64,000 nucleotides of DNA, taken from positions 5,494-69,493 of the forward strand of contig CAMZKV010000037.1 in the NCBI GenBank assembly GCA_947311445.1. Direction: 5' to 3'. The notes under the pieces were generated by a model that ran no database searches, was not told the origin of the DNA, and saw only the letters and a program-made list of their open reading frames with translations. Source of the stretch: an uncultured Chlorobiota bacterium. GTDB taxonomy: Bacteria; Bacteroidota; Bacteroidia; Bacteroidales; JAADGE01. Positions 35,912 to 59,600 of this stretch are shown here, in pieces; within the stretch, counting starts at the first letter, position 1; each line of letters opens with the position of its first letter. A program made the translations under genes and the position numbers.

Positions 35912-35941
35912 AAAAAAAAAGCCGACAAGTAATTGTCGGCT
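35912..35941 (-). terminator. Intrinsic terminator ending the rhodanese/porin cluster
   Basis: agccgacaa / ttgtcggct stem with an 8-9 nt U-run on the minus strand. Confidence 0.85.
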
Positions 35942-35973
35942 CTGGGATTAACTAAAAATTAGAAAACGAAAAA

Positions 35974-36807
35974 TTATTTTTCAACTTTACCAGTTTTTAC
36001 CCATTCGTTTAATGCTCCATCGTAAACTTTTACATTAGGATATCCAAGAATTGATTTTAATACTAAAAATATAACTCCTGCTCTAACACTTGTTTTGCAA
36101 TAAAGAATTATTTTTTTATTTGAAGTTATTCCTGCGGATTTAAATGCACTTGCTAATTCTGTTTTTGATTTAAATTCCCCTTTCGAGTTTAAAACTTTTT
36201 TAAAATGAAAATTAACTGCTCCGGGAATATGACCCCCTAAACTTTTTTCAGTTTCTCCTTTAAATTCATCAGCCGGACGAACATCTACAAGTAGATAATT
36301 TCCGGATTTTACGTCTTTTAATTTTGCAATATAAGCAAATTTAACACTAGGTGTAAATGTTGTTTTTGATAAAGTTGTAGGAGATGATGAAAATGGTTTT
36401 CTTGCAGCAAACCATGCTTTGTAACCTCCGTTAAGCATTTTTACATTTTTAACACCTAAATATTTAAGTACCCAATACATTCTTCCAGCGTATTTGCCTG
36501 AACCATTATCATACACAACAATTGGTTTTGTGTTGCTTACACCTTTACTTCCAAGTATTGTAGCAATAGCAGAAGATGCTTTTAATTTGCCTTCGGAAGA
36601 CGAATTTAATTCTTTATAATGAATATTAATTGCACCTTTAATATGTGCTTTTGCATATTTCTTTGCTTTTCCTGCATAAATTACAATACATTCTTTCTTT
36701 TTAATCTTTGCTGCCAAATCTTTTGCTGATATAAAATCTTGTGCTTTAATATTCATACTTGAAAGAACAAATATAAATACCATAATTATTGAACTTAATT
36801 TTTTCAT
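35974..36807 (-). CDS. Exported tandem-domain sulfurtransferase (rhodanese, SseA/TST-like)
   Basis: Signal peptide ending in IKA-Q; HIKGA, VVYD.G...AGR.YW.L...G...V..LNGG..AW, DVR...EF.G...GHIPGA, active loop YCKTSVRA, YDGA..EW. Confidence 0.92.
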   Translation of the reverse strand: MKKLSSIIMVFIFVLSSMNIKAQDFISAKDLAAKIKKKECIVIYAGKAKKYAKAHIKGAINIHYKELNSSSEGKLKASSAIATILGSKGVSNTKPIVVYDNGSGKYAGRMYWVLKYLGVKNVKMLNGGYKAWFAARKPFSSSPTTLSKTTFTPSVKFAYIAKLKDVKSGNYLLVDVRPADEFKGETEKSLGGHIPGAVNFHFKKVLNSKGEFKSKTELASAFKSAGITSNKKIILYCKTSVRAGVIFLVLKSILGYPNVKVYDGALNEWVKTGKVEK

Positions 36808-36825: not shown

Positions 36826-37920
36826 TTAGAATTTAATTTGAACTTGCATTAAAAACGCATCGTTAGCTACTTCCACATAATTATCTCCAACTCCTAATTC
36901 GCTGTTCATTAAGTAATTAAGTTGAAGCCTTGTATTGTCGTTGAAGAAATAGTTTACTCCTATTGTTATTGTTGATAATTTATCAATTACAGTATTCTCG
37001 ATTTTGTTTTCTGTATCAGGATCAAAAAATTCATATTTAACAATAGGCTGTAAATTAAAATTTGTCATATACATTGCTTGTACAAATGCTCCACCTCTTT
37101 TTTCTCCCATCAAAACAGGATCAGCACCACAACCTCCTCCAGAAGCACCAATGCCTCCTTGGTCTGCAATGTATTCTGCTTGAACTGTAAAATCTTTATA
37201 TTTGAATTCAAGTTCCCCTGCATAGCTTGTTCTATTAATAGTATCTTTGTCTGGAAAACCATATCTAAAACTTCCTCCAACTCTCAAAAAATCTAGAGGT
37301 TTTAATGTAACACGACCAATAACATCTTTTTTTCTATTATTATCGCCGTGTGTATTTGTAAGAGAGCCTATTCCGTTTCCGTTCATAAGAGCAATTGCAT
37401 ATTTTATAAGAGTTTTATTGTCGCCTCCAAGTAACATAATTCCCATATCCCTTTGTGGCGAAACTATTTGGTCTGAAACATTTGCTCTGTTTATTGTATG
37501 CAATCCGTTGCAAGGTGTATTTATTTCCATTCCAAAAGGTTGCTTAAAAGAACCCATGGAAACTTTAGCCCATTTGTACCTTGTATATGAAACAAAGGCA
37601 TCTAACAAATATGGGTATCCTCCGCCAACAAAAGCACTATTTTCGAGAACTACATAATATTTAAAATCATAAGGAATATTACCTTTTACTCCGAGCCTAG
37701 CTCTTTTAAATTTAAAAGTATTTGTATTTTCATTTAAATCAGGAGTATTTTTATCATCATTAAAATGAAATTCATATTGAGGTTGTATAAATCCAAATAA
37801 TTTTGGCTTTCCGCTGTCATCTGTTCCTTCATCTCCATCATCATCGCAACCTTGAGCAAATGCGACTGAATAAATTAAAATAAAAAATAATGACATTAAA
37901 ATAACTGTTAGTTTTTTCAT
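36826..37920 (-). CDS. Phosphate-selective porin O/P-like outer membrane beta-barrel
   Basis: Signal peptide (start MKKLTV), FGFIQPQY, FKFKRARLG..G, LLDAF, G.FKQPFG.E, terminal QVQIKF aromatic residue. Confidence 0.82.
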   Translation of the reverse strand: MKKLTVILMSLFFILIYSVAFAQGCDDDGDEGTDDSGKPKLFGFIQPQYEFHFNDDKNTPDLNENTNTFKFKRARLGVKGNIPYDFKYYVVLENSAFVGGGYPYLLDAFVSYTRYKWAKVSMGSFKQPFGMEINTPCNGLHTINRANVSDQIVSPQRDMGIMLLGGDNKTLIKYAIALMNGNGIGSLTNTHGDNNRKKDVIGRVTLKPLDFLRVGGSFRYGFPDKDTINRTSYAGELEFKYKDFTVQAEYIADQGGIGASGGGCGADPVLMGEKRGGAFVQAMYMTNFNLQPIVKYEFFDPDTENKIENTVIDKLSTITIGVNYFFNDNTRLQLNYLMNSELGVGDNYVEVANDAFLMQVQIKF

Positions 37921-37941
37921 TTTTTTTTTATGAAGTTTAAC

Positions 37942-37972
37942 AAAAAAAGCCTTGAAGATATACAAGGCTTTT
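37942..37972 (-). terminator. Internal terminator-like hairpin between the rhodanese lipoprotein and porin genes
   Basis: aaaagccttg / caaggctttt stem flanked by A/T runs on both sides. Confidence 0.7.
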
Positions 37973-37987
37973 ATTTCTAAAATTTTT

Positions 37988-39004
37988 TTATTTTGTAACT
38001 AAAGGATAATCTTTTGGATTTGCTGTAACTCCCCATTGGTTAGGTCCTGTCCAGAAACTACTTGAATTAAATAAACCATTCAATCCAAATTTTAAACTGT
38101 ATGCATTGTAACCAAGAACTCTTAAATAAGCAGTTAATACACCAGAAGTTTGTCCTGTATAGCAATAAGTTATAACATCTTTGCTTGCATCTAAATTTTT
38201 ATATTCTTTATTTTCCAAAGTTAAAGGATTGATTCTATATGCACCTTTTATATGTCCGTAGCCTGCATAATCTGTACCTGAGAAGTAATTATTTATACAA
38301 TAATTATCAGGAGTGTCAATAATATCACTTGCAGATTTACCCTTAAATCCAGCTTTAAGAACTTTGTTAATTCTGTCGTCAAGTAGGGCTTTTCCTGTTA
38401 ATGAAGAACTTATTTCAGGATCACTAAATGTAACGGGTGCAGTTGCATCTGTTGTCCAATTATTATGCCCGTCAGCTACATCTCCAATATTTGGAGTCCA
38501 TTTATCAAGTGTTGAATTCCAACCGCTCATTCCCCATTTTAATGCTTGTGTATTTCTGTATCCCGCTAATCTTAATAATGCAGTTGTAAAGCATGCAACC
38601 TGACCTGTGTAACAAACAACAAGAATTGGTTTATCTCCTGCATTTGCAGCTTCTGTTAAAGCTCCTGTTAAATCTCCATCATCAGTAGGAGCTGTATTAA
38701 TTGCTCCGTCAACATGACCTGCTGCATAATCAGCAGCACTTCTAATATCAATAATATGATATTTTGCTAAGAAAGCATCAACTTCATCTGATGTTGCGGG
38801 TGCCGGTACAACAAATTTAATATCAGTTTCGCCATGATATTTAATAATACTAGGTAAATCTAAATTGTTACTTTTCATATAATCCGTAAGAACTTTAAAA
38901 GCTGGATCTGCGTTTGGTTCAATAGGTTTAGTATCTTTACAGCTTGTAAATAATACTGTCGGCACTAAAAATAATGCAATAAAATAAATTGTTAATTTTT
39001 TCAT
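37988..39004 (-). CDS. Lipoprotein with two rhodanese domains
   Basis: Lipobox LFTSC; IIDIRS..DY..GHVDGA and GHIKGA; both domains keep CYTGQ active loops; LKWGM.GW and LKFGLNG. Confidence 0.88.
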   Translation of the reverse strand: MKKLTIYFIALFLVPTVLFTSCKDTKPIEPNADPAFKVLTDYMKSNNLDLPSIIKYHGETDIKFVVPAPATSDEVDAFLAKYHIIDIRSAADYAAGHVDGAINTAPTDDGDLTGALTEAANAGDKPILVVCYTGQVACFTTALLRLAGYRNTQALKWGMSGWNSTLDKWTPNIGDVADGHNNWTTDATAPVTFSDPEISSSLTGKALLDDRINKVLKAGFKGKSASDIIDTPDNYCINNYFSGTDYAGYGHIKGAYRINPLTLENKEYKNLDASKDVITYCYTGQTSGVLTAYLRVLGYNAYSLKFGLNGLFNSSSFWTGPNQWGVTANPKDYPLVTK

Positions 39005-39071
39005 TTTTTTTAATTTTTAAAATATGTATCTTAATTTGTTTAAAATTTTATTATTTATTATTTGAGCTATT

Positions 39072-39650
39072 TTAACATCCACCGTCATCTTCTTCTGCTC
39101 CTTCTGGCTCGAAACCCTCAGCTTGTACAGGAATTTCTATATTGTCTGGATATGCTTTTTTAATTGCATTATATCCTCCTACCAGACTTTTTACATTTGT
39201 ATAACCCATTGTCATAAGTGTTAATGTGGCTAAAGCACTCCTTTTACCACTTTTGCAATTAAGAATTATTAATTCATCTTTTTTTGGTGTGTAAATCATT
39301 GCATCTTCCCAAAAACTGTCTTTTTGAATTCTAAATTCAAGAACTCCTCTGGGGATATTAAGTGCATTTTTAATATGCCCTTTGTTAAAATCTTTTTCTG
39401 CTCTTAAATCTATCAGAACAAATGTTTCTTCTCCGTCAACTTTTGCCTTAAATTCATCAGGTGTAATTTCAGAAATTTTTGTTTTTGCGTCTGCAATCAT
39501 GTCATCAACAGTATTAAATTCGGCTGTTGCTTTGGGCATTACGTCGGTCTTTGTATCATTTTTTCCTTCATTTTGACTTTCTTTTGTTTCGTTGCAACTA
39601 ACTGCAAATAAGAAAATTAATAATACTAATACTAAATTTACTTTTTTCAT
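39072..39650 (-). CDS. Single-domain rhodanese lipoprotein with acidic GGC C-terminus
   Basis: Lipobox FAVSC; IDLR...F..GHI..A.NIPRG.LEF, NCKSGKRS active loop, L.GG; ends EEDDGGC. Confidence 0.88.
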   Translation of the reverse strand: MKKVNLVLVLLIFLFAVSCNETKESQNEGKNDTKTDVMPKATAEFNTVDDMIADAKTKISEITPDEFKAKVDGEETFVLIDLRAEKDFNKGHIKNALNIPRGVLEFRIQKDSFWEDAMIYTPKKDELIILNCKSGKRSALATLTLMTMGYTNVKSLVGGYNAIKKAYPDNIEIPVQAEGFEPEGAEEDDGGC

Positions 39651-39856: not shown

Positions 39857-40552
39857 ATGGAAAAGAATAATGTCCAATCTAGTTGTACAGTAGCAGATTA
39901 CAAGTGTAAGTGCTTTGATGTATTAAAACCTTCTGAAATTGAACTTATAAAAAATAATGAAGTTTATGTAACTTATAAACGTGGGGAAACTATTTGTAAG
40001 CAAGGAACTTTTGCTTCGCATATTGTTATTATGGAAGAAGGTTTAGCAAAAGTTTCTATTGAGGATTGTAATAAATCTTTAATATTAAAAATTATTCCCG
40101 AAGGAAATATGATTGGTTTAACTGCACTCTCACAGACTAATAATACATTTCAATATTCTGCAAGTGCCTATGTTGATTCAAAAGCAAGACTCATAGATAT
40201 TAAAATCTTTAAGAAAATTGTTAAGCAAAATTCTGACTTTTCATTTGAATTGTTAAATCTACTTGCATCCAATAGTGTACAGATATATGGTCGTTTCTTT
40301 TGTCTAACAAATAAGCAATCATACGGTAAGTTAGCAGATATTATTTTGTGTCTTTCTAATAGGGTATATAAAAAACGAGAGTTTGAGCTATTATTAAGCA
40401 GAAAAGATTTGGCTGAATTGTCTGATATGTCAACGGAGAACGTTATTCGAATGTTAAAAAAGTTTAAAGAAGATGGTTTAATTGAGATGAAAGGAAAACA
40501 ATTTAAAATTATAGATTATAAAAATTTAGTAAAAATAAGTGAAATTGGATAA
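39857..40552 (+). CDS. Crp/Fnr family transcriptional regulator
   Basis: cNMP-like barrel (YKRGETICKQG, G.AKV, G..IG), C-terminal HTH (LSRKDLAEL..MSTENVIR.L..F...G.I); N-terminal Cys cluster. Confidence 0.93.
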   Translation: MEKNNVQSSCTVADYKCKCFDVLKPSEIELIKNNEVYVTYKRGETICKQGTFASHIVIMEEGLAKVSIEDCNKSLILKIIPEGNMIGLTALSQTNNTFQYSASAYVDSKARLIDIKIFKKIVKQNSDFSFELLNLLASNSVQIYGRFFCLTNKQSYGKLADIILCLSNRVYKKREFELLLSRKDLAELSDMSTENVIRMLKKFKEDGLIEMKGKQFKIIDYKNLVKISEIG

Positions 40553-42460: not shown

Positions 42461-43852
42461 TTACTTACTATTATCTTTCAAATATTGAACAATAATATTC
42501 GGAGAATTTATACTTTCAGCATATTGTTGTATTGATAAGTTTTTATATTTAATTTTAAAATTTGCTCCATTTTCTTTTAGTAGTTTAATCATTGGAAGAT
42601 TATGTCTTTTAATTGCTATGGATAAACAAGTTTCTCCATATTTATTTTTGTAATTTAAGTTTGCATCTTCGTTAATGAGTGTTTGGGCAGATATATAATG
42701 GTCATAATCAACAGCATACATTAAAGGTGTTTTATTAAAATATCCTTTGTATTCTTTATTAGCTCCAGCATCAAGTAATAATTTAATAATAATATCATTG
42801 TCCGTATTAACTGCAGATATCAGTGCAGAACGCTTTGTCCAGTCTTTTTCGTTTACGTTTGCTCCTTTTTGAATGTAATATTCTAAAATGTCTTTTTTCT
42901 GACTTTTAATTACTGCAAATAAAGGAGTGTTATTAACATTTGCTTCTTTAATTTTGTAAAAGATGTCAATTCCATAAGTTTCTAATTTTTTTATAGTTTT
43001 TAAATCTGAATATTTTATAGCATTAAAAATTAAAGGTTTATTATCAGGAAATTTTCCTTTAGCAGTATTATTTAAACCAGCTTCTAAAAGAAAATTTAAA
43101 GTTTGTTCATTATTAAAAATTGTTCTAAAGTTTAATTCTGCGTTGTTAATATTAGGCTTTAAAAGTAAAATTCTTTTTAAATCAGCTTCATTTTCTAATG
43201 CAAAATTAATATTGATGGTTTTAGTGCTTGTTCCGAGATTAACCATTTTTTCAATAAGTTCTATATCTTTACATTCTGATAAGTTAGCGTTTTTAATATT
43301 ACATTTGTTTTCTACAAGAAGATTAATCATATTTAAATTTTCGTTTTTTAAGGCAATATCAATAGGGAAGATTTTGTTTCTTGAAGGTGTATTGACATCT
43401 GCTCCCAAACTAATCATTTTATTAACAATTTTTAGGTTTCTTGTATTAACCGCTTCTATAAATGGAGTAGAGTTGTTAGAATAGGTTCTATATTTCTTTT
43501 TATAAAAACTTTTCACAATAGGAATATAAGTTCCGAGCTTTCTTACAGAGTATTTATATTCTACAACGGCATTTGGGTTTGCTCCTCTATCAATTAGCAC
43601 ATTGATATTTGCTAATATTTTTTCTTCTGAATATAAATTATTATCAACAAGCAAATTAAAAAGTGCTAAATCTAATGAATCGTTAGAAATAACAATTTTT
43701 GAGAAATCTATTTCATCATTTGGAAAAACATTATTCTTTTCAGAAATACTTCCTACCAAAGTTTGTGAACAGGAACTCTTCTCAGGATTTTTAATGCAGG
43801 AGGCAAAAATTATTGAACTAAATAAAATAAATAGGATTAAAATATATCTCAT
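42461..43852 (-). CDS. Ankyrin-repeat lipoprotein
   Basis: Lipobox IFASC; repeated TP(L/F)..A...N..I...L...GA.VN motifs. Confidence 0.85.
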   Translation of the reverse strand: MRYILILFILFSSIIFASCIKNPEKSSCSQTLVGSISEKNNVFPNDEIDFSKIVISNDSLDLALFNLLVDNNLYSEEKILANINVLIDRGANPNAVVEYKYSVRKLGTYIPIVKSFYKKKYRTYSNNSTPFIEAVNTRNLKIVNKMISLGADVNTPSRNKIFPIDIALKNENLNMINLLVENKCNIKNANLSECKDIELIEKMVNLGTSTKTININFALENEADLKRILLLKPNINNAELNFRTIFNNEQTLNFLLEAGLNNTAKGKFPDNKPLIFNAIKYSDLKTIKKLETYGIDIFYKIKEANVNNTPLFAVIKSQKKDILEYYIQKGANVNEKDWTKRSALISAVNTDNDIIIKLLLDAGANKEYKGYFNKTPLMYAVDYDHYISAQTLINEDANLNYKNKYGETCLSIAIKRHNLPMIKLLKENGANFKIKYKNLSIQQYAESINSPNIIVQYLKDNSK

Positions 43853-45243
43853 ATTTTTCGTTTTAAAAAAATTCCTTTAATATCTGATGAAATAAATTCT
43901 TTATTTTTTATACATACTTTACCTGCTTTTATAACAATTTCGGGTTTTCCATTAATTATTGTTCCTTCATAAATATTCAAATCGCAATTTGAATGATGAT
44001 ATTTAGAACTTATTATTTCATTAATTTTAGAGTTCCAGATTACTAAATCTGTATCTGAACCAACAGTAATTTCACCTTTTTTAGGATATAATCCAAAAAT
44101 TTTTGCAGTATTTGTTGAAGTTAATTTTACAAAGTCATTTAGCGAAATTTTATTTTTTCTAACTCCATATGTATATAGTAAAGATAAACGGTGCTCAACT
44201 CCTCCTGCTCCATTTGGTATTTTTCTAAAATCATTTTCTCCAAGTTTTTTTTGAGAAAGATTAAAAGGACAATGGTCTGTGCCAACAGTTTGTATATTTT
44301 CAGTTTTAAGAGCTTTCCATAAAGCAAAATTATCTTTTTCTTTTCTTAAAACCGGACTGAAAACATATTTTGATGTTTCATTAAATTCTCCAAATAATTT
44401 ATCGTCAGTTAGTAAAAGGTATTGAGGACAAGTTTCTGCCAATATTTTAATTCCTTTTTTTTGAGCGTTTCTTATATGTTCTAGACTTTCTTTTGTGGAA
44501 ACATGAACAATATAAACAGTGCAATTTGTTTGTTCAGAAAAATTAATAATTTTTTTTACAGCATCAGATTCAGTGTAGTTTGGTCTTGAAACAGCATGAT
44601 ATTTGGGACTTAAATTTCCATTTTTCGCACTATTATTTCTTAATTTATCAATTTCATCTCCTAATTCAGCATGCACTGTAATAATGCCTTTTGATTTGGC
44701 AACAATTTTCATAATTTTTAATAAAACATCATCTTTCAGTCCTATATTGTATGCCATGTAAACTTTAAATGAATTTATTCCTGACTTTGTGATTTCACAT
44801 ATTTCATTTTCAATATTTTCATGAAAATCAATTGGTGAAACGTGGAAACTATAATCTGTTAATGAGTTACTTGCTTCATTTTTTCTCTCAGAAAGAGCAT
44901 TAACAAGATTCTGTCCTTTTTTGGGTGTAACAAAATCTAAAATTGTAGTTGTTCCTCCAAAAAGTGCTGCTTTGCTACCGGTGTAAAAATTGTCAGAAGA
45001 AAAACCTGCAGGAGTTGGAAGTTGCATATGTACATGAGGGTCAATTCCTCCGGGAAAAATATATTTTCCTTTTGCATCAATTATAGTTTCATTACCTTTA
45101 GCTTCTATTTTTTGCGAAATTTCTGTAATTATACCATTTTCTGATAATATATCAGATTTAAAAATCTTATCAGAAGTAACAATAATTCCATTAATGATTA
45201 AAGTTTTTTCAATCTTTTTAACTTCTTTGTTACTTGTGTACAT
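43849..45243 (-). CDS. hydA: Dihydropyrimidinase / D-hydantoinase
   Basis: PGGIDPHVH, AA..GGTTT, SFKVYMAY (carbamylated Lys), VHAE, VHVS, AETCPQYL, TDHCPF, IPNG..GVE. Confidence 0.93.
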   Translation of the reverse strand: MYTSNKEVKKIEKTLIINGIIVTSDKIFKSDILSENGIITEISQKIEAKGNETIIDAKGKYIFPGGIDPHVHMQLPTPAGFSSDNFYTGSKAALFGGTTTILDFVTPKKGQNLVNALSERKNEASNSLTDYSFHVSPIDFHENIENEICEITKSGINSFKVYMAYNIGLKDDVLLKIMKIVAKSKGIITVHAELGDEIDKLRNNSAKNGNLSPKYHAVSRPNYTESDAVKKIINFSEQTNCTVYIVHVSTKESLEHIRNAQKKGIKILAETCPQYLLLTDDKLFGEFNETSKYVFSPVLRKEKDNFALWKALKTENIQTVGTDHCPFNLSQKKLGENDFRKIPNGAGGVEHRLSLLYTYGVRKNKISLNDFVKLTSTNTAKIFGLYPKKGEITVGSDTDLVIWNSKINEIISSKYHHSNCDLNIYEGTIINGKPEIVIKAGKVCIKNKEFISSDIKGIFLKRKI

Positions 45244-45272
45244 TATTTGGCAGTAATTCAAAATTTTTAATT

Positions 45273-45893
45273 TTATTGAATAATATTCATAACAAAAAGT
45301 CCGTCATTATCTTTTTTAAATCCAACTTTCTTCAAGTATTTTATATGATCAAAAGTTTGTGGAACAACAATAATTTTTTCTATACCATTTTCAATAAAAT
45401 CGTTTTTTAATCTATGGTATATGAATTTTGCGTTTTTATAGTCTCTATATTCAGGAACAACAAAGTCTAGACCAACACTTAAAGTTTTACTGTCTTTTTT
45501 ATGAGCTAAAAAAATACCGGCAACAGCCATATTTCTTAAAACAAAAAAACTTACAGTATTTAGTTCAGGTTTATATTTGAAACCGGGAAAAAATTTTTGA
45601 ATTCCTTTATCATGAAATTTTAAAAAATTCAATAAATATTTGTTACCACTTCTAATCTCAAGAGTTGTGAATAACTCTTTTTTATTGTATATTCTATACA
45701 GGTAATATATGTCTGTTAAAATTATAAATACATTTAAAATAACTATTGGAATTGAGTTAAATAATAAACCATAAATTAAAAAAGAAATTGCTCCTACTAA
45801 ATTAACCCAGCGGAATTTCACTATTGAGCTCATTGTCATTGAAATTGCAATAATTACAGAAGCTGCATATCCTATTATTTGTATGTAATCCAT
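45273..45893 (-). CDS. YgjV-like membrane protein with C-terminal GNAT-like domain
   Basis: Three N-terminal TM helices (IGY.AS......M......R..N..G...F..YG); C-terminal LDFVVPEYRD and YLKKVGF. Confidence 0.6.
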   Translation of the reverse strand: MDYIQIIGYAASVIIAISMTMSSIVKFRWVNLVGAISFLIYGLLFNSIPIVILNVFIILTDIYYLYRIYNKKELFTTLEIRSGNKYLLNFLKFHDKGIQKFFPGFKYKPELNTVSFFVLRNMAVAGIFLAHKKDSKTLSVGLDFVVPEYRDYKNAKFIYHRLKNDFIENGIEKIIVVPQTFDHIKYLKKVGFKKDNDGLFVMNIIQ

Positions 45894-46004
45894 TATTATA
45901 TTATTTAAGTAAATTTTTATTAGTTTAAGTGTGTATTTATTATTTAAAATTTTAGTATTCAGGCACAAAGGTATTTAAATTTACATCATTATAAAATCAT
46001 TTTT

Positions 46005-46532
46005 CTAACAATATTTTTGAAGTTTCCTGTAATATTTTTTTATATCTCCATTTAGTCTGAATACACCTTTTGATAAATTAAATTCAATTGAAGCTAATAA
46101 TTCCGGTTTTAAATCAGAAAATTTTTCTGAAATATTAAAAAGTAAAGTTAAACAATTAAATTTTACTGCAACCTTTTCATTTGAAAGCATATATGAGAAA
46201 CAGGTTTCAATTAATTTTGTGAGATTATCTTCGGACAAATATTTAACATATTTTGATAATACAAAGGCATAGCTTCTTTTTAATCCGTCGTTTTTAAATT
46301 CAGGAAAAAGATTTGCAATTTTATTAACATATGGAACAAATAAATTTGGGTATTTTAAAATACTCAATCCAATAACTCTTGCCGCACGCCAATTTTCGGG
46401 AGATTTTTCTTCCAAACTTAACATAAGTACTTCTTTAAAATAAAGTTGCTTGTTTCCAATTGCTTCGCATGCTATATCTGCGGTAGCTCGTAAACTATCT
46501 GTTTTTATAATGTTTTTGAAGTCTGGTTTCAA
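46005..46532 (-). CDS. Hypothetical HEAT/ARM-like helical protein
   Basis: All-alpha pattern, WRAA.V, DG.KR, EKVAVK...L..L; TTG start. Confidence 0.55.
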   Translation of the reverse strand: MKPDFKNIIKTDSLRATADIACEAIGNKQLYFKEVLMLSLEEKSPENWRAARVIGLSILKYPNLFVPYVNKIANLFPEFKNDGLKRSYAFVLSKYVKYLSEDNLTKLIETCFSYMLSNEKVAVKFNCLTLLFNISEKFSDLKPELLASIEFNLSKGVFRLNGDIKKYYRKLQKYC

Positions 46533-46665
46533 AACTTTATTGAATATTTTTAAGATTGCTCTTTGTTAAAATTTAAAACATTGTTGTCCGAAAAAGATAT
46601 TAAAACTGGTAAAAAAACCTTTCAAATAGGAATACTAAGAATTTCTAACTTGTTTTATTGTTTTG

Positions 46666-47448
46666 TCAAAACCTTATAATAAAATCTTCTTTTGATAACT
46701 CTTTTTTAAAAAAGACTATTCCACAAAAGAATAAATCAATTGTTAAACTTACATCCTTATTTTTTTTTATTTCTTCCCATGCCTCATTCATACCTTTTGA
46801 CCAATTTATATCATCAAACCAAAAAATAGTATTATTATGTTTTTTACTTAAACACTGATTAAAATAATTAATAGTAGCATTTTTTTGGTGATTGCCATCA
46901 AAATATACAAAATCTAATTTTTCTAAGTTTTTTAGCAATTCAGGTAATTCTGTATTAATATTTCCTATTTTTTGCTGAATGTTTTTAATTTTTAATTCTT
47001 TAAAGTTTTTAGAGGCTTTTTTTGCTGTTTCAGGGCAACCTTCTATTGTGTATATTTTTGCCTTACTGTTTGGCATTGCCAAATATAAAGATCCAATTCC
47101 AAGAGATGTTCCAAGTTCTAAAATTGTTTTGGGTTTAAAATATTCTATTAATCGGAATAACAATTCTCCAAATTTTTCATTAATTGCTGAATATTTAGTA
47201 ATATCTTTTACTTTTCTGTAAGCTGAACTCATTTTTTTTGAACCTGCACCAAAATCTTTCACATTTATTCTTTCTGTTGAATCTAGTAGATCATATCTCA
47301 AATTTGCAATATCATCTAGAGCATAATAATTTGAATCTTCTGATATTACATTTCTTACTAAATTATACAAAAAAGGGGAGTGGATTCCATATCCATTCTT
47401 GTGTTTTGCTGTAAGCTTATATTTTATGTATTTTAATTGTTGATACAT
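46666..47448 (-). CDS. Class I SAM-dependent methyltransferase (O-methyltransferase-like)
   Basis: GIHSPF, ILELGTSLG, TIEGC, D.VYFDGNH, FDDI.WS..M..AW. Confidence 0.88.
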   Translation of the reverse strand: MYQQLKYIKYKLTAKHKNGYGIHSPFLYNLVRNVISEDSNYYALDDIANLRYDLLDSTERINVKDFGAGSKKMSSAYRKVKDITKYSAINEKFGELLFRLIEYFKPKTILELGTSLGIGSLYLAMPNSKAKIYTIEGCPETAKKASKNFKELKIKNIQQKIGNINTELPELLKNLEKLDFVYFDGNHQKNATINYFNQCLSKKHNNTIFWFDDINWSKGMNEAWEEIKKNKDVSLTIDLFFCGIVFFKKELSKEDFIIRF

Positions 47449-47526
47449 TTTATTCAGAATATTAGTACTAAATTGCTATAAAACTATAATTTAGTACAAG
47501 ATTTGTTTTTTTTAATGCAAATTTAT

Positions 47527-47563
47527 AAAAAAAAGAAACCGAAAAGATAATTTCTTTTCGGTT
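47527..47563 (-). terminator. Intrinsic terminator
   Basis: aaaccgaaaaga / tcttttcggttt stem with a U-run on the minus strand. Confidence 0.7.
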
Positions 47564-47589
47564 TTATTTTACAAAATGTTGTATTGTTT

Positions 47590-47946
47590 TTATGCCTGTT
47601 GTGCTTCTTTTGCGGCAGGTCCTTGGTATTGTGCATCTCCAAATCCAAGCATTGGAATAAAGATAAATCCTAAGAAAAGCATTCCTAAGGTATAACCTAC
47701 ATCCTTTCCAAAACTTTTTGAAAGTAAGTTAATCGTCCAAATACCCCAAATCATACCAACATAAGGTATCATCATTAAGAAAAACCACCACCAAGGTTTC
47801 CCAACTATCTCTAGCATCACAATAGTACTATATATTGGCACTAATGCTGCCCAACCTGGTTTTCCTGCTTTAACAAAAATTTTCCACATTGATGCAAACA
47901 TAAAAATTACTAATGCTAATACTAAAATTATAACAACAATTTCCAT
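47590..47946 (-). CDS. DUF5684 family membrane protein
   Basis: WKIF.KAG.PGWA.LVPIY, G.PWWW, L.KSFGK..G motifs. Confidence 0.85.
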   Translation of the reverse strand: MEIVVIILVLALVIFMFASMWKIFVKAGKPGWAALVPIYSTIVMLEIVGKPWWWFFLMMIPYVGMIWGIWTINLLSKSFGKDVGYTLGMLFLGFIFIPMLGFGDAQYQGPAAKEAQQA

Positions 47947-48048
47947 AATAAGTTTTTTTTAATTTTTGCTTACTCTATACAGTTTTCAGCATACCTGTAA
48001 AAAAAGCAGAAATAAATCTGCTTTTAATATTTTAAAAAAGAGTGTTTA

Positions 48049-48408
48049 TTATGCTTCAACTGCTTTAGCACCCCAATTGTTATCTTCTTCAACTCCGTCT
48101 TTTATCCAGAAAATAATTAAAATAATTATTCCGATAAAAGGAATTAAAGCTAATAGTTGTAACCAACCGCTTTTGCCTATATCGTGTAATCTTCTTGCTC
48201 CAATTGCTAAACTTGGAATCATAACAGCTAGCCCAAATATGCCGCTAAAAATCTTCATTCCAATAATATTATCAATAATTGATAATACAATGTTAATTAC
48301 AATTGAGAACAAGATAAACATCCAAAAATCTTTTTTTGCAGTTCTGCCTTTAAAATCAGCATACTGACCTTTTAAAACGTCTAAAAAATACTTGTTAAAA
48401 ATTTCCAT
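48049..48408 (-). CDS. DUF805 family membrane protein
   Basis: YADFKGR...K.FW.F, P.LA.GARRLHDIGKSGW, D....N.WG. Confidence 0.9.
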   Translation of the reverse strand: MEIFNKYFLDVLKGQYADFKGRTAKKDFWMFILFSIVINIVLSIIDNIIGMKIFSGIFGLAVMIPSLAIGARRLHDIGKSGWLQLLALIPFIGIIILIIFWIKDGVEEDNNWGAKAVEA

Positions 48409-48587
48409 AAAATAATTTTTTTTATAATTTATTTACCTACTCTTTTGTATTCAGTTTTCGGTATCCCTGAATATTGGTCAAATATATAAACAGTTTTTAT
48501 ATATTTCAAATTATTTTTTTAAATATAAGATATTTAGTGTGTTTAATTGCAATTTTAAACAATAAAATTCGTTGTTTATTAATCTGT

Positions 48588-49868
48588 TTATTTCGCTCCT
48601 ACAACAATTTCAATCATTGTATTTTCATTAAGATACTTTTTAGCTGTATTCATTATAATTTCAGGTGTTATTTCTTTCACAGTTTCAAAAAATCTTTTAT
48701 AATAATCTAAATTCATATCATATAAAATAACTGTTCTTAAAGTTTCTGAGACAGCAAATGCACCATCAAACATTCTCGAAAAGTTTCCAATTAAATAATT
48801 TTTTACTCTATTTAATTCTTCTGATGACATCAAAGTTGTTCTTAATATTTTTAATTCTTTGTAAATCTCAACAATGGCTTTTTTATATACATCTTTCCCC
48901 GATTCCGCAGAAATTTGAAACACTCCTGCTTCAATCATAGAAGTAGTACTTGCATAAATGCCGTATGTATATCCTTTGTCTTCACGAATATTTGTCATTA
49001 ATCTTGAACCAAAATATCCTCCTAAGATAATGGATGTTATGTTCAAATTAAAATAATCATGATGAGTTCTATTTATTGTTTTCTTACCTATGCGAATAGA
49101 AGATTGAACAGTGTTTTCAATACTTATAAACTTTCTTGTTTTTTTTATCGGAATTTTTGGAAATATAATTTCCTTATTTTTTAGTTTTTTTACTTTTGTT
49201 TTTCCAAAAAAATCATTTAATAAACTAATATGATCTTCGTTTATTTTACCTGCAAGAATTATTGTTAAATTTTCAGACTTAAATTTTTTATTGTAAAATT
49301 TTTTTACTTTTTCTGAAGTAATATCTTTGAATTCTTTTTCCGTTATATTAATACCGTAGGAATGATTTTTACCAAATATTGTTTCATAAAAAACTTCATG
49401 CGAAACTGCATTAGTTTTTTGCCTCTCAATTAAGTATGTTTGATACTTGTTTTGTAGATAAAGTTCAATTTCACTTTCCGGAAATGTTGCATTGTAGAAT
49501 ACATCTGCAACAATAGATATTGTTTCTTTCAAATATTTATTTAATGTGTAAAGAGTAATTTTTGAAAAGTGCATTCCTGCTTTTAATTCTAAAAATGCTC
49601 CATAAAAATCAAGTTTTTCTGCAATTTGTTCGGCTGTTTTATTTTTAGTCCCTACATCTGCAAGTACAATTGCGGCATCAGCAATTAAAGGGTTTTTGTT
49701 GTACACTTTACCTGCTTTAATTATAAAATCAATTTTAACAACTTCTTGTTCTCCTCCATTAATTAAATAATATGGTATTCCATTTGAAAGTTCTTGTTTT
49801 TCAATATTTATAATATCTAACTTTTCTGCAGTTTTAAATTTAGGTTTTGCTTTTATTTGCTTTGTCAT
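48588..49868 (-). CDS. M16 family peptidase, probably the non-catalytic subunit
   Basis: LSNG, GT....A..IAE.LDFYGA, ILGGYFGSRLM.NIRE.KGYTYGI; no HXXEH motif. Confidence 0.85.
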   Translation of the reverse strand: MTKQIKAKPKFKTAEKLDIINIEKQELSNGIPYYLINGGEQEVVKIDFIIKAGKVYNKNPLIADAAIVLADVGTKNKTAEQIAEKLDFYGAFLELKAGMHFSKITLYTLNKYLKETISIVADVFYNATFPESEIELYLQNKYQTYLIERQKTNAVSHEVFYETIFGKNHSYGINITEKEFKDITSEKVKKFYNKKFKSENLTIILAGKINEDHISLLNDFFGKTKVKKLKNKEIIFPKIPIKKTRKFISIENTVQSSIRIGKKTINRTHHDYFNLNITSIILGGYFGSRLMTNIREDKGYTYGIYASTTSMIEAGVFQISAESGKDVYKKAIVEIYKELKILRTTLMSSEELNRVKNYLIGNFSRMFDGAFAVSETLRTVILYDMNLDYYKRFFETVKEITPEIIMNTAKKYLNENTMIEIVVGAK

Positions 49869-49914
49869 TTTGAATTTATTTTATTGATTATTAAAGTTTT
49901 ATAATACATAATAA

Positions 49915-51486
49915 TTACAGCTCTTTGTTTTGTATAAAACTCATTGCTCGCTCACTTATTGCCGTAATACTCAATGCAGGATTTACACCAGGATTAGCTG
50001 AAATCATTGAACCATCGCAAACATACATGTTTTCATAGCCAAAAACTTTATTGTTTTTATCAATTACGCCGTTTTCAATATCTTTTCCCATTACGGCACC
50101 GCCCAAAATATGTGCAGTTGAGGGTATTCCTGTAAGAGTTTCCGTAAACATAACTGTTGGTTTTCCGTTTATTATTTTACCATATTTATGTGCAACTTCA
50201 TGTGCTTCGGGAATAAATGCAGTTGGGTTTTTACCTTTTTCAATTTTTGTTCCTGTTCTAAGAAATTTCTTTCTTAATTTTAAAGTGCTGTCAAGATATT
50301 GCATAAATAAAATAACAGATGTTTGTTTTCCAAAATTTGGAGCAAAGAAAATTTTAAGCCACATTAAAGGTGCCGTAAACGGAATAATAAATAACTTAAA
50401 AATTCTTAAAAAGAAATTCTTTTCACTTACCATTGGCATTACTAAAACTCGCCAAAAACCTGAACCTTTGCCATATCTTACAGGTTCAATATTGCTGTTC
50501 TCATCCACTTCAATTATTGAGCCTATTGCAATTCCGTCCGACATATTTTTGTTTTTATCAGAACTTACGGTAAGTATTAATGCTTCATTATTTGTTCTTA
50601 TGTTATCTCCAATTTTTTTACTTAAATTTGGTAAATTTTTCTTTTTTTGTTTCAACAAAAGCGGAACCGTACCAAGCACACCGCCTGATAAAACTATTCC
50701 TTTTGCTTTAACAGTTTGTTTCTTTTTTAATAATTTAGTAGATTGCTTAAAAATAACTTCATAAGCTGTTGTTCCGGTCTTTCCGTCAAGCGGAATTATA
50801 TCTGTTACTTCTTGTTCTGCAATAATTTCAGCACCAAGTTGTTGTGCAAGGTGTAAATAGTTTTTATCCAAAGTGTTTTTTGCATTATGGCGGCAACCTG
50901 TCATGCAACTTCCACATTGAATGCATCCTGTTCTTGTTGGTCCTTTGCCGTTAAAATATGGGTCATCAACCGTAAGATCATTTTCTCCAAAATAAATAGC
51001 AACTTTTACAGTTTTAAATTTATCTTCTTTTCCAATTTCCTTTGCAAGTTGTTTAAATGCCAAATCACTCTCTCCGAAATATGTATTTTCAGTTGCTCCG
51101 AGCATTTTCCATGCAGTTTCGTAATGAGGTGCAAGTTCTTTTTCCCAGTCAGCAAGTTTTGCCCACGAGCCATGATTAAAAAACGGTGTTTTAGGTTTTG
51201 GTAAAGTGTTGGCATACACCAATGAACCACCACCAACGCCAACACCACTCATTGCAGAAATATGCCTTAAAAAACTTATTTTTTGAATGCCAAATAAACC
51301 AAACTTTGGTAGCCATAACCATTTTCGTAAGTTCCAATTTGTTTTTGGGAAATCATTATCTTTAAACCATTTGCCTTTTTCTATAACAAGAACTTTATAA
51401 CCCTTTTCGGAAAGCCGCAATGCCGAAACCGCTCCGCCAAAACCGGAACCTATTATTATGTAGTCGTATTCTTTTTTTAATTTCAT
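49915..51486 (-). CDS. GMC oxidoreductase, cholesterol oxidase (ChoD)-like
   Basis: IIGSGFGG.V.A.RL.EKG..V.V.EKG, GVGGGSL.YAN, C..CG.CM.GC...AKNTL..NYL, TAHILGG, DGS...N.GVNP.L.I. Confidence 0.88.
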   Translation of the reverse strand: MKLKKEYDYIIIGSGFGGAVSALRLSEKGYKVLVIEKGKWFKDNDFPKTNWNLRKWLWLPKFGLFGIQKISFLRHISAMSGVGVGGGSLVYANTLPKPKTPFFNHGSWAKLADWEKELAPHYETAWKMLGATENTYFGESDLAFKQLAKEIGKEDKFKTVKVAIYFGENDLTVDDPYFNGKGPTRTGCIQCGSCMTGCRHNAKNTLDKNYLHLAQQLGAEIIAEQEVTDIIPLDGKTGTTAYEVIFKQSTKLLKKKQTVKAKGIVLSGGVLGTVPLLLKQKKKNLPNLSKKIGDNIRTNNEALILTVSSDKNKNMSDGIAIGSIIEVDENSNIEPVRYGKGSGFWRVLVMPMVSEKNFFLRIFKLFIIPFTAPLMWLKIFFAPNFGKQTSVILFMQYLDSTLKLRKKFLRTGTKIEKGKNPTAFIPEAHEVAHKYGKIINGKPTVMFTETLTGIPSTAHILGGAVMGKDIENGVIDKNNKVFGYENMYVCDGSMISANPGVNPALSITAISERAMSFIQNKEL

Positions 51487-51585
51487 ACTTTATTCTATGT
51501 AAAAATGTTTCGCACCATTGCTGCTGAAATTTAATTTAAAAATCTTTCAAATTTAATATATTTGTTGAAATTTAAGAAATGTAAG

Positions 51586-52461
51586 ATGAACGAAAAAATA
51601 ATGTTAGCAATAATTCTGCTTTTTATAGTGATTATAATAATCTATATAAAAAAGAAAAATGCATGGAAAATCCCAAAAGGTGAATTTTCCAAAAAATGGC
51701 GAGTAATTCTTTCTGAAAAAATAATTTTTTATAATAATTTGAATGATGAAGAAAAAAAACAATTTGAATTTAAAGTCCAAGAATTTTTATTGAATTGCAA
51801 AATTACGGGAATAAAGACGAAAGTTGAAGATGTTGACCGAATTTTAATTGCTGCAAGTGCAATAATTCCAATTTTTGAATTTCCTGAATGGCGTTATTTG
51901 AATATTGATGAAGTTTTACTTTATCCGAAATCTTTTAATATGGATTTTGGCGTAAATAATGAAAGCACTGTTCTTGGCATGGTCGGTTCAGGTGTTATGG
52001 AGGGCAAAATGATTTTATCTAAACAAAGTTTAATTAACGGTTTCCAAAACGAAACAGATAAAAAAAATACCGCAATTCATGAATTTGTGCATTTAATTGA
52101 TAAATCTGACGGAGCAATTGATGGTCTGCCAAAACTTCTTCTTGAAAAACAATATACAATTCCTTGGATAGATTTAATAAAGCAAAAAATAGATGAGATT
52201 TATAAAGGGAAGTCTGATATAAATCCTTATGGAGCAACAAGTAAGGCAGAGTTTTTCTCTGTAATAAGCGAATATTTTTTTGAACGGCCTGAACTTCTGA
52301 AAAAGAAACACCCAAAACTTTATAAACTTTTAGAACAAATTTTTAAGACCGACGGAATAAGCCGTTTTAAAATAAAAAAACGAAAAATAACCGGCAGAAA
52401 TTCACCTTGCCCTTGCGGAAGCGGCAAGAAATATAAGCATTGTTGCGGGGAAAATATATAA
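51586..52461 (+). CDS. MtfA / peptidase M90-like zinc protein with C-terminal SEC-C motif
   Basis: N-terminal TM, IAASA.IP, V..YP..F, N..IHEFVH..D, YGAT..AEFF.V.SE.FFE.P; tail GRNSPCPCGSGKKYKHCC; TATATTTG -7 element at 51557-51564. Confidence 0.88.
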   Translation: MNEKIMLAIILLFIVIIIIYIKKKNAWKIPKGEFSKKWRVILSEKIIFYNNLNDEEKKQFEFKVQEFLLNCKITGIKTKVEDVDRILIAASAIIPIFEFPEWRYLNIDEVLLYPKSFNMDFGVNNESTVLGMVGSGVMEGKMILSKQSLINGFQNETDKKNTAIHEFVHLIDKSDGAIDGLPKLLLEKQYTIPWIDLIKQKIDEIYKGKSDINPYGATSKAEFFSVISEYFFERPELLKKKHPKLYKLLEQIFKTDGISRFKIKKRKITGRNSPCPCGSGKKYKHCCGENI

Positions 52462-52526
52462 ATGTAATAAGCTGTAAAGTTATTTAATCAGCTAAGATTT
52501 TTGCTGTTTTACTATATTGGCAAAAA

Positions 52527-52565
52527 TACCGATAATTGCAATATATCGGTAATTTAACCGATATT
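52527..52565. promoter_or_regulatory. Candidate operator upstream of xdhA
   Basis: taccgata-attgcaat-a-tatcggta palindrome plus a third accgata half-site; TATATTTG -7 element at 52598-52605. Confidence 0.45.
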
Positions 52566-52691
52566 TACAGAAAATACTTTTTTTTATTGATATTTTTTAT
52601 ATTTGTAAAAATAATGATTATTTAATTCAACATATCAGCAGATATAGGAGTACAACTTATTTAAAAAGTTTATATAAAAAAGCAAAGAATC

Positions 52692-54050
52692 ATGATACAA
52701 TTCATTTTAAACAACAAATTAATAAAAACCGAAAAAAAAGCAAGTTCAATTTTGCTAGATTTTATAAGATACGACCAACACCTTAAAGGAACAAAATCCG
52801 GTTGCAGAGAAGGTGATTGCGGTGCATGTACAGTTCTTGTAGGAACTCTTGAAAACGGTATTGTAAATTATAAAAGTATGGCATCTTGCCTTACGCCGCT
52901 TGGGAATGTGGCAGGAAAACATGTTGTAACTGTTGAAGGAATTAACGGAAAAGATTTAACCCCTATTCAGAAAGCATTACATGAACATTCAGGAACTCAA
53001 TGTGGTTTTTGCACACCGGGTTTTGTAGTTTCTTTAACAGCACACGCAATGTCAAAAAAAGAAAATACAAATGAAGCTGCAAAGCTCTCAATTTCAGGAA
53101 ATATTTGCAGATGTACAGGCTACAAATCAATTGAAAAATCCGTTGATGATATCGTTGATGATTTGAAAGAAAAACCAAAAACGGCATCCTTAAATTGGAT
53201 GATTGAACATAATTATTTACCAAAATATTTTAAGGACATTTCAAAACGACTATCTGAAATAAAAACTGAGAAACAAAAAGGTAAAAAAATAATAGGAGGA
53301 GGAACAGATTTATATGTGCAAAATCCAGATGAAACCTCTGACACAGAAGCAAGTTTTTATTTAAATAAAAATGAATATAAAGAAATATCAGAAAACAATG
53401 AAATTATAACAGTAGGAGCATCAGTTACAGCTAATGAAATTATGTATTCGAAAATTTTTAATAAACATTTTCCAAAAATAAAAGATTGGTTTAAACTAAT
53501 ATCATCTGAACAAATAAGAAATGTAGGAACTGTTGCAGGAAACTTTGTAAATGCCTCACCAATAGGAGATTTAACTATTTTTTTCTTAGCACTAAATGCA
53601 GAATTGAATTTAAAAAATTCCAAAGGAAAAGTAAGAAAAATTGCTTTAAAAAACTTCTATAAAGGATACAAAACAATAGATTTACAAAAAGATGAGATTA
53701 TTGAAAGTTTAAATTTCAATATACCTAAAAGCAATTTTAAATTTAACTTTGAAAAAGTGTCAAAAAGAACATTCTTAGATATTGCAACTGTAAATACTGC
53801 TCTTTCATATACATTAGCAAAAAATGTAATTGAAGATATTCATATTTCGGGTGGTGGTTTGGCTGCAATTCCAAAATATTTTGATAAAACACGAAATTTT
53901 TTGAAAGGAAAAGAACTAAATATGTCAAATCTGAATGATGCAAGCGAAATCCTAATTTCAGAAGTAAGTCCCATAAGTGATATAAGAGGAAGTAAAGAAT
54001 ATAAGAGTTTGTTGCTGAAACAATTGTTCTTTGCTCATTTTGAAATCTGA
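52692..54050 (+). CDS. xdhA: Xanthine dehydrogenase small subunit (2x[2Fe-2S] plus FAD)
   Basis: GTKSGCREGDCGACTV, QCGFCTPG, GNICRCTGY, GGGTDL, QIRNVGTVAGN..NASPIGD, FEKVSKR..LDIA. Confidence 0.92.
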   Translation: MIQFILNNKLIKTEKKASSILLDFIRYDQHLKGTKSGCREGDCGACTVLVGTLENGIVNYKSMASCLTPLGNVAGKHVVTVEGINGKDLTPIQKALHEHSGTQCGFCTPGFVVSLTAHAMSKKENTNEAAKLSISGNICRCTGYKSIEKSVDDIVDDLKEKPKTASLNWMIEHNYLPKYFKDISKRLSEIKTEKQKGKKIIGGGTDLYVQNPDETSDTEASFYLNKNEYKEISENNEIITVGASVTANEIMYSKIFNKHFPKIKDWFKLISSEQIRNVGTVAGNFVNASPIGDLTIFFLALNAELNLKNSKGKVRKIALKNFYKGYKTIDLQKDEIIESLNFNIPKSNFKFNFEKVSKRTFLDIATVNTALSYTLAKNVIEDIHISGGGLAAIPKYFDKTRNFLKGKELNMSNLNDASEILISEVSPISDIRGSKEYKSLLLKQLFFAHFEI

Positions 54051-54203
54051 AACTAAGATTTTTTAAAGGAATACTTTTTAAATTATTCATTATTTTTTTT
54101 TAGTTCTTAAAATTTAAGTGCAAAAAACTAATTCTAATTAGATGTCTTAAACACATCCAGATAATCAAATAATTAGTATTAAAATCTAACAAAGCAACAT
54201 AAA

Positions 54204-56756: not shown

Positions 56757-56769
56757 AAAAAATAAAAAT

Positions 56770-58607: not shown

Positions 58608-58611
58608 AATT

Positions 58612-59583: not shown

Positions 59584-59600
59584 ACTTTAACATTGCAAAC

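Follow-up and report, generated by a model that had tools for sequence, protein, structure and literature searches.

In the Sox thiosulfate-oxidising system, SoxY has a C-terminal GGCGG carrier arm. The Sud protein of Wolinella succinogenes is soluble and holds sulfur on its active-site cysteine, with neither a lipid anchor nor a terminal carrier tail, and to our knowledge no dedicated porin has been described for it. Outer-membrane thiol proteins have long been proposed in the literature on acidophiles to mobilise elemental sulfur, as a proposal only. Here we describe a locus in a 64,000-nt stretch of DNA from an uncultured Chlorobiota bacterium (GenBank assembly GCA_947311445.1, contig CAMZKV010000037.1, positions 5,494–69,493 of the forward strand), hereafter the window, which encodes three exported rhodaneses together with an outer-membrane porin of the Porin_O_P family. 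A similar pairing is found in Geobacter sulfurreducens, where the gene of the rhodanese lipoprotein ExtH adjoins that of ExtI, a porin distantly related to phosphate-selective ones (PMC5877670). The transport of polysulfide or insoluble sulfur over the outer membrane has yet to be explained, according to a 2026 paper on the reductase MccSep (PMC13510729). We found that the porin of the window belongs to a subfamily with three conserved cysteines, one of which is exchanged for selenocysteine (Sec) in relatives, and that the small rhodanese ends in a conserved glycine-flanked cysteine. Set on flexible loops and tails, these residues probably react with sulfur as it passes to an enzyme of sulfur respiration.

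Conserved cysteines of the porin and the Sec/Cys exchange

The porin (364 amino acids (aa) from an ATG; 36826–37920, minus strand) scores 65.5 bits against Pfam Porin_O_P (PF07396), for which the gathering cut-off is 20.9. Its AlphaFold2 model (pLDDT 86) is a classical barrel of 16 strands, and Foldseek matched it to OmpF, OmpC, PorB and OprP at E values of about 1e-12. The first-pass annotation of this DNA had pointed to a QGC motif at the N-terminus of the mature protein and to a glycine-rich GGGCG; both are present, the latter at residues 260–265 within the segment GGIGASGGGCGADP (residues 255–268). It had overlooked a third cysteine, Cys137 (NTPCNG), and what it described as an insertion turned out to be the conserved loop L6 of this porin subfamily, not a peculiarity of the window’s protein. 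In an alignment of 120 homologues, Cys25 and Cys137 were invariant (120/120), and Cys264 was found in 116 sequences, with three more shifted by one column; the conservation of cysteines was thereby confirmed, as it was for the rhodanese tail described below. As related genomes are not independent, this and all further counts are descriptive. A profile search of 1.8 billion representatives revealed a sharp subfamily boundary. Full-length porins of the subfamily, nearly all with scores over about 240 bits, carry the complete set of three cysteines and more distant Porin_O_P relatives have none, i.e., the cysteines come as a package.

From the alternation of loops and turns in the model and from canonical porin topology, Cys137 (codon 37510–37512) would lie in loop L3 (residues 127–156), Cys264 (codon 37129–37131) in the 18-residue loop L6 (residues 256–273; 37102–37155), and Cys25 (codon 37846–37848) on a periplasmic arm. 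L3 comprises 30 residues with short helices between strands 119–126 and 157–165, and by the AlphaFold2 strand pattern it occupies the constriction-loop position of classical porins. By this topology L6, the loop with Cys264, is extracellular or in the lumen and is no arm of the periplasmic side. Cys25 is found 15 residues ahead of the first strand on an arm predicted to be disordered (pLDDT < 50). This arm (residues 23–39; 37804–37854), composed of QGC and an acidic linker, is 12–22 residues long and always net negative in homologues (119/120). Gln23, Gly24 and Cys25 are invariant, and in all 119 sequences (119/119) the stretch ahead of the glutamine matches the signal peptidase I pattern, with Ala, Ser, Gly or Thr at −1 and a small or aliphatic residue at −3; position −2 is often Lys, Phe or Tyr. 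Glutamine at +1 corresponds to the Bacteroidetes Q-rule (PMC5837995). The proposed mature start QGCDDDGDEG, after ...AFA, is consistent with this signal peptidase I pattern and the Q-rule. Given the invariant Gln and Gly and these two features, the mature porin most likely starts with pyroGlu-Gly-Cys, and Cys25 would not be a lipidation site.

Sec substitution in other taxa, suggested as a check of the earlier annotation, was detected for Cys264. An in-frame TGA occupies its column in five genomes of two lineages (G118, G595, G596, G093, and G597), and the reading frame is conserved on both sides. The G118 porin has a single TGA exactly at this column (GGG-U-G, where U is Sec) and the G093 porin has it in the context GG-U-GG. 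Each of the three species in the first genus keeps the TGA, as do both species of the second (g94); the sister genus of the latter (G598) has Cys at this position. Cys25 and Cys137 remain Cys in every Sec-form porin. Among metagenome loci, 2 of 77 were Sec forms. When the 60 nt downstream of the TGA were folded, without a formal selenocysteine insertion sequence (SECIS) model, a hairpin was seen to start 15–17 nt past the TGA. The two species of g94 (genomes G093 and G597) have different stems, GGGUUU/AAACUC and GAUCUU/AAGAUC, with two fully compensatory pairs, and the encoded peptide differs between the two species despite this compensation. SelB, tRNA-Sec and SelD scored over cut-off and lay close together in both TGA genomes tested (G118 and G093), and neither SelB nor tRNA-Sec was over cut-off in the Cys-form genomes of the window (G000), G154 and G106. 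In the sample of the order, 5 of 31 porin genomes were positive for SelB; a TGA was found in two of these five and in none of the 26 SelB-negative genomes. Judged from these sequences, the residue at position 264, with its Sec/Cys exchange, bears the classical mark of redox activity.

Other observations on Sec were made in the same data. G118 has two SelB-like genes over cut-off (C34:36111–38000 and C38:24569–25711), and only the copy on C38 adjoins tRNA-Sec and SelD. The SelD genes of G025 (C36:13422–14345) and G166 (C154:2143–3060) have one in-frame TGA each and are probably SelD selenoproteins, a known phenomenon. In two truncated porin representatives, P0261 and P0263, the sequence stops with ...GG where Cys264 would stand, and they are candidate Sec forms; a metagenome scan seeded with them returned only Cys-form relatives and two contigs of the g119 type already known. 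A third truncated representative, P0257, ends like the Sec form of g94. Another earlier note had read positions 43849–60878 of the window as a selenium-dependent molybdenum hydroxylase system; this needs re-checking without SelD in the window’s genome.

The glycine-flanked terminal cysteine of the rhodaneses

The single-domain rhodanese lipoprotein (192 aa; 39072–39650, minus strand) scores 67 bits against Pfam Rhodanese, and has a lipobox (...AVSC) and an intact catalytic loop (CKSGKRS). Its last codons, D-D-G-G-C followed by TAA (39072–39074), are as reported earlier and close a flexible tail of 20 residues (173–192; 39075–39134). In the AlphaFold2 model the rhodanese core has pLDDT above 94 and the last 20 residues are without secondary structure, with pLDDT falling over successive blocks (76, 55, and 38). 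Endings of the type GGC, GGCG or GGCGx were observed in 59 of the 62 best homologues, which are lipoproteins with identities down to about 36%, vs. 0 of the next 58 matches, which are cytoplasmic and about 127 aa long. Many relatives end in GGCGG or GGCGD. In an alignment of 51 homologues Gly190, Gly191, Cys192 and the lipobox Cys19 are invariant, and the linker before GGC varies in sequence, length and charge alike. With a net charge anywhere between +3 and −10 in the 20 residues before GGC, and only the glycines and the Cys fixed, we abandoned acidity as a defining trait of the rhodanese tails. Beyond the lipid Cys and a dozen or so residues of the core fold, the glycine-flanked terminal Cys is, by these alignments, the sole fixed feature of the tailed rhodaneses.

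A census of the window’s genome revealed that 4 of its 3113 open reading frames (ORFs) of at least 80 aa end in GGC, vs. 0.09 expected from composition, and all four encode rhodanese-domain proteins. The other three lie together on a second contig (C39; L047:1–7509), directly after genes for a PhsA/PsrA-like molybdoenzyme (749 aa), its Fe-S and NrfD subunits and a YeeE that is split into two genes. All three end in ...EEEGGC, and two have a membrane helix at the N-terminus as their anchor; one of these is without the catalytic Cys yet has the GGC tail, the pattern shown by the 237-aa protein of this contig. The near identity of two of the C39 tails suggests that a duplication or gene conversion took place recently.

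The same pattern was seen in the porin loci of other genomes, where the tail Cys is present in 17 of 17 copies of the single-domain rhodanese and the catalytic Cys132 in 14 of 17; the three copies without the latter still keep the tail Cys. The tail is thus conserved more than the catalytic Cys, which, together with the census of GGC tails, is a new observation. The terminal Cys outlasts the catalytic Cys and its linker varies, as would be expected of a carrier arm more than of an accessory to catalysis. Four of the five genomes whose porin locus is without a tailed rhodanese encode tailed ones elsewhere, in several architectures. Sec was not found in the tails: in G093 the two tailed copies beside the Sec porin have Cys at their ends, and the four tails of the window’s genome stop at TAA.

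Locus layout and distribution

The operon consists of four co-directional genes on the minus strand, opposite a divergent gene for a Crp/Fnr-family regulator (39857–40552, plus strand; Pfam cNMP_binding and HTH_Crp_2), and is closed by a terminator-like hairpin (35918–35943, minus strand). Between the tailed rhodanese and the porin lies the gene of a two-domain rhodanese lipoprotein (338 aa; 37988–39004, minus strand), with two stretches matching Pfam Rhodanese, CYTGQ loops, and a catalytic Cys in both domains; Cys131 and Cys281 are invariant in 19 of 19 locus copies. No sequence relative of this lipoprotein was found in PDB. Beyond the porin lies the gene of an exported periplasmic tandem rhodanese of the TST/3-MST type (277 aa; 35974–36807, minus strand), with two Pfam Rhodanese matches. 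Its N-domain is inactive and the catalytic Cys237 of the C-domain is invariant (19/19 locus copies). All three exported rhodaneses score over the cut-off of Pfam PF00581. A second terminator-like hairpin (37945–37972, minus strand; 10 pairs followed by a T-run) is located between the stop of the two-domain lipoprotein and the porin start, and may set the ratio of upstream to downstream product. The TTG at 37965, taken earlier as the porin start, falls within this hairpin; the ATG at 37920 is therefore the likelier start.

In 20 genomes of the order, the trio of two-domain lipoprotein, porin and TST-like rhodanese was present in every locus with enough flank, usually accompanied by a Crp/Fnr gene and one or two tailed rhodaneses. 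The Crp/Fnr gene is divergent to the operon in most Bacteroidales loci. These regulators (window 39857–39930; loci L021–L037) share an N-terminal Cys pattern, S-C near residue 8–12 and C-x-C-F-D some ten residues on, which suggests a redox- or sulfur-sensing cluster or a thiol switch. Two classes of neighbours were observed: one with PsrABC-like genes, and the other with YeeE upstream and DsrE-like, MvhD, two HdrA-like and HdrC/B-like genes downstream. PsrABC lies directly upstream in about half of 80 loci from named genomes (Lutibacter, Algibacter, Flavivirga, and others). Most Flavobacteriaceae loci, e.g., those of Lutibacter, Algibacter, Flavivirga, Gaetbulibacter and Namhaeicola, form one co-directional cluster of PsrA, PsrB and PsrC, sometimes a tailed rhodanese, two two-domain lipoproteins, and then the porin. 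In L041/L042 (genus g119) and L068–L127 (Flavobacteriaceae), the two-domain lipoprotein is present as a tandem of two or three copies, upstream of the porin; these lineages often lack the TST-like gene on the downstream side of the porin.

The porin was detected in only 2 of 400 other genomes of a phylum-wide sample, and a scan of named genomes returned many carriers in Flavobacteriaceae. Cultured carriers of the module include Lutibacter, Algibacter, Carboxylicivirga and Labilibacter; in Carboxylicivirga marina and Labilibacter sediminis, too, psrABC adjoins it. The other congener in our collection (G129, 99% complete) had no porin match at E ≤ 1e-40; the module thus seems accessory even within the genus. 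We also examined the lipoproteins for a strict surface-export pattern, i.e., a polar or positive residue and then at least two acidic residues right after the lipid Cys (PMC5080379). It was fitted by 29 of 93 two-domain lipoproteins (mean of 3.0 acidic residues at +2 to +7) and by 0 of 36 GGC-tail lipoproteins (mean of 1.2), and is weak in the window’s own copy (CKDTK...). These sequences hint that the two-domain lipoprotein is on the cell surface, beside the porin loops.

Proposed sulfur-carrier arms, rival explanations and comparison with known systems

The first-pass annotation proposed that the porin and the rhodanese lipoprotein carry swinging persulfide arms. Part of this claim stands, as the cysteines are conserved, the rhodanese tail and the porin arm are predicted to be unstructured, and the context is one of sulfur genes; acidity as a defining trait of the tails does not stand. 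In our best reading, to which we assign a probability of about 0.55, the cysteines are on sulfur-carrier arms that feed a sulfur reductase. A conserved envelope module made up of the two-domain lipoprotein, the three-Cys porin, the periplasmic TST-like rhodanese and at least one GGC-ended rhodanese would take up and pass on sulfane sulfur, in the form of polysulfide, elemental sulfur or thiosulfate. It would serve a Psr/Phs-type molybdopterin reductase and, elsewhere, the YeeE/DsrE/Hdr-like cytoplasmic set. The GGC tails most likely act like the SoxY arm, in that a Cys tethered by small glycines would carry a persulfide or polysulfide and reach the active sites of partners. Cys264 in L6, or Sec where the machinery exists, would be a redox-active nucleophile that probably opens the S-S bonds of incoming sulfur; Cys137 in the constriction loop and Cys25 on the periplasmic arm could then pass sulfur inward to the rhodaneses and the GGC tails. 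Our data show the conservation and specificity of the cysteines, the exchange of Cys for Sec, the disorder predicted for tail and arm, the topology of the porin and the association of the genes; sulfur loading, the order and direction of transfer, the substrate and the hand-off route are inferred.

A bolder version of this scheme makes the porin a covalent thiol/selenol relay across the outer membrane. The Cys or Sec of L6 would attack extracellular sulfur or polysulfide, and sulfur would be handed to the Cys of L3, to that of the N-terminal arm, to GGC-tailed carriers anchored to both membranes, and finally to PsrABC or YeeE. We put this version forward tentatively and consider it doubtful as a whole. 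Were it true, the porin would be the first selenoprotein β-barrel porin and would give a molecular identity to the thiol proteins of the outer membrane that have long been assumed to mobilise elemental sulfur. A catalytic porin would represent an outer-membrane protein of a new type and a selenoprotein family not listed so far, and tails acting as carriers would mean that the SoxY principle evolved independently on a rhodanese scaffold.

Several points weigh against the sulfur-carrier reading. The window’s genome, which is 94% complete, has the Cys form of the porin, no SelD, and no SelB or tRNA-Sec over the family cut-offs, so for this genome the Sec argument is one by homology only. In several loci no GGC-tail gene neighbours the trio, and genome G003 yielded no tailed rhodanese; the tails may thus be accessory. 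For Lutibacter profundi, which carries psr genes, thiosulfate was reported to give no stimulation (PMC5219744). ExtH and ExtI of Geobacter, the nearest relatives studied so far, were linked to selenite and tellurite and not directly to sulfur (PMC5877670). The proposed carrier role of the cysteines is based on conservation, the Sec exchange, predicted disorder and gene context.

Among the rival explanations, a redox switch combined with resolving residues survives best, yet we consider it unlikely. Here a disulfide or selenylsulfide between Cys137 and Cys264 (Sec) would open, close or tune the pore, and the GGC tails would resolve the rhodanese persulfide and release sulfide, i.e., a thiol-dependent reductase cycle in place of delivery. 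It is in line with the fact that Sec/Cys exchange marks redox-active sites in general, thiol/disulfide exchangers included, and that L3 and L6 shape porin lumens; in addition, most tailed rhodaneses keep their catalytic Cys within reach of the 20-residue tail. A two-Cys switch, however, does not need the third invariant Cys on a separate periplasmic arm. As for resolving tails, the tail persists in copies that have no catalytic Cys to resolve, and the GGCGG ending matches a known carrier and not known resolving cysteines.

The cysteines might instead be structural and carry no sulfur, forming intramolecular disulfides or intermolecular tethers, either of the porin N-terminus to the rhodanese C-termini or of porin subunits to one another. 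Invariance alone is compatible with such roles, and the terminal Cys of the porin arm could pair with the terminal Cys of its partners. Sec is costly and thus an unlikely choice for a purely structural bond; the exchange at Cys264, together with the odd number of cysteines in the porin, makes a purely structural disulfide unlikely. Tethering is further at odds with the presence of Cys25 in loci and genomes that yielded no tailed rhodanese, and with the four different tailed proteins that the window’s genome has for one porin. On balance, we regard purely structural cysteines as improbable.

Somewhat less probable still is an import of selenium or tellurium oxyanions as for Geobacter ExtI/ExtH, with cysteines that bind selenite as selenotrisulfide-type adducts. 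The best NCBIfam matches of the window’s porin and tandem rhodanese are indeed the ExtI and ExtH models, ExtI affects the reduction and uptake of selenite and tellurite (PMC5877670), and SelD is somewhat commoner in porin-bearing genomes (18/31 vs. 65/170). Yet both scores are far under the cut-offs (porin_ExtI, NF040900: 59 bits vs. 150; ExtH, NF040901: 75.6 bits vs. 200), and SelD was not seen in the window’s genome or in 12 other porin genomes. Moreover, the neighbours are sulfur genes (PsrABC, YeeE, DsrE, and Hdr-like), the enzyme of the ext cluster itself has meanwhile been identified as a polysulfide reductase (PMC13510729), and ExtI has one Cys only (PMC5877670). A role in selenium supply was rejected for the window’s genome, given its lack of SelD and of SelB or tRNA-Sec over the family cut-offs.

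Lipidation of Cys25, with AQG-C as a lipobox, the acidic run as a surface-export signal and the porin as a lipidated barrel without a free N-terminal thiol, recalls Bacteroidetes export-signal lipoproteins in its Gly at −1 and acidic run after the Cys (PMC5080379), and lipidated barrels exist in the phylum according to a TamL preprint, but it is very improbable and was rejected, as a cleaved-off lipobox does not require the invariant Gln at −2, the residues before this Gln fit signal peptidase I with Gln at +1, and the operon’s true lipoproteins have ordinary, variable lipoboxes.

Returning to the proposed sulfur-carrier arms, we compared the module with the systems described so far; in the literature that we searched, neither a selenoprotein porin nor GGC-tailed rhodaneses were reported. 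OprP/OprO (PDB 2O4V) share Porin_O_P and the 16-strand barrel with the window’s porin. The more distant Porin_O_P relatives have none of the three cysteines; the subfamily of the window’s porin is always flanked by rhodaneses. The rhodanese profile matched Sud of W. succinogenes (1QXN) with an E value of 6e-11. Like the small rhodanese described here, Sud is a single-domain periplasmic rhodanese, and together with the PsrABC-type reductase that it serves it is the nearest functional precedent for Psr being fed by a rhodanese. The likeness to SoxY is confined to the glycine-flanked Cys at the very C-terminus of a periplasmic protein, after a stretch predicted to be flexible, where many relatives end exactly in GGCGG and the window’s own tail stops at GGC. 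The fold is that of a rhodanese, with Rhodanese as the only Pfam match and no SoxY, and SoxY is therefore a functional analogue only. The context here is reductive (Psr) or one of import (YeeE), in contrast to Sox oxidation; no SoxZ or Sox enzymes were seen among the conserved neighbours, for which no dedicated search was made.

Of the systems studied so far, ExtH/ExtI is the nearest. The tandem rhodanese scores 123.6 bits with the NCBIfam 3-MST model, under its cut-off, the other two rhodaneses of the operon were not listed for ExtH, and none of ten porin relatives of about 400 aa tested as ExtI reached the cut-off. GGC tails are not mentioned for ExtH in either of the two papers on the ext genes (PMC5877670, PMC13510729). 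In Geobacter the cluster extHIJKL... is tied to the periplasmic polysulfide reductase MccSep, a selenocysteine multihaem cytochrome (PMC13510729), whereas the module of the window is tied to a Psr-type molybdenum enzyme (PsrABC/PhsA-like). ExtI has its single Cys (PMC5877670), and the porin described here has three invariant ones, of which one is Sec in relatives. Given the scores far under cut-off and the single Cys of ExtI, the module is, by model scores and published description, a distant relative of ExtH/ExtI and not a member. It is set up as a compact unit of a three-Cys porin with one Sec-exchangeable position, GGC-ended rhodaneses and tight genetic linkage to PsrABC.

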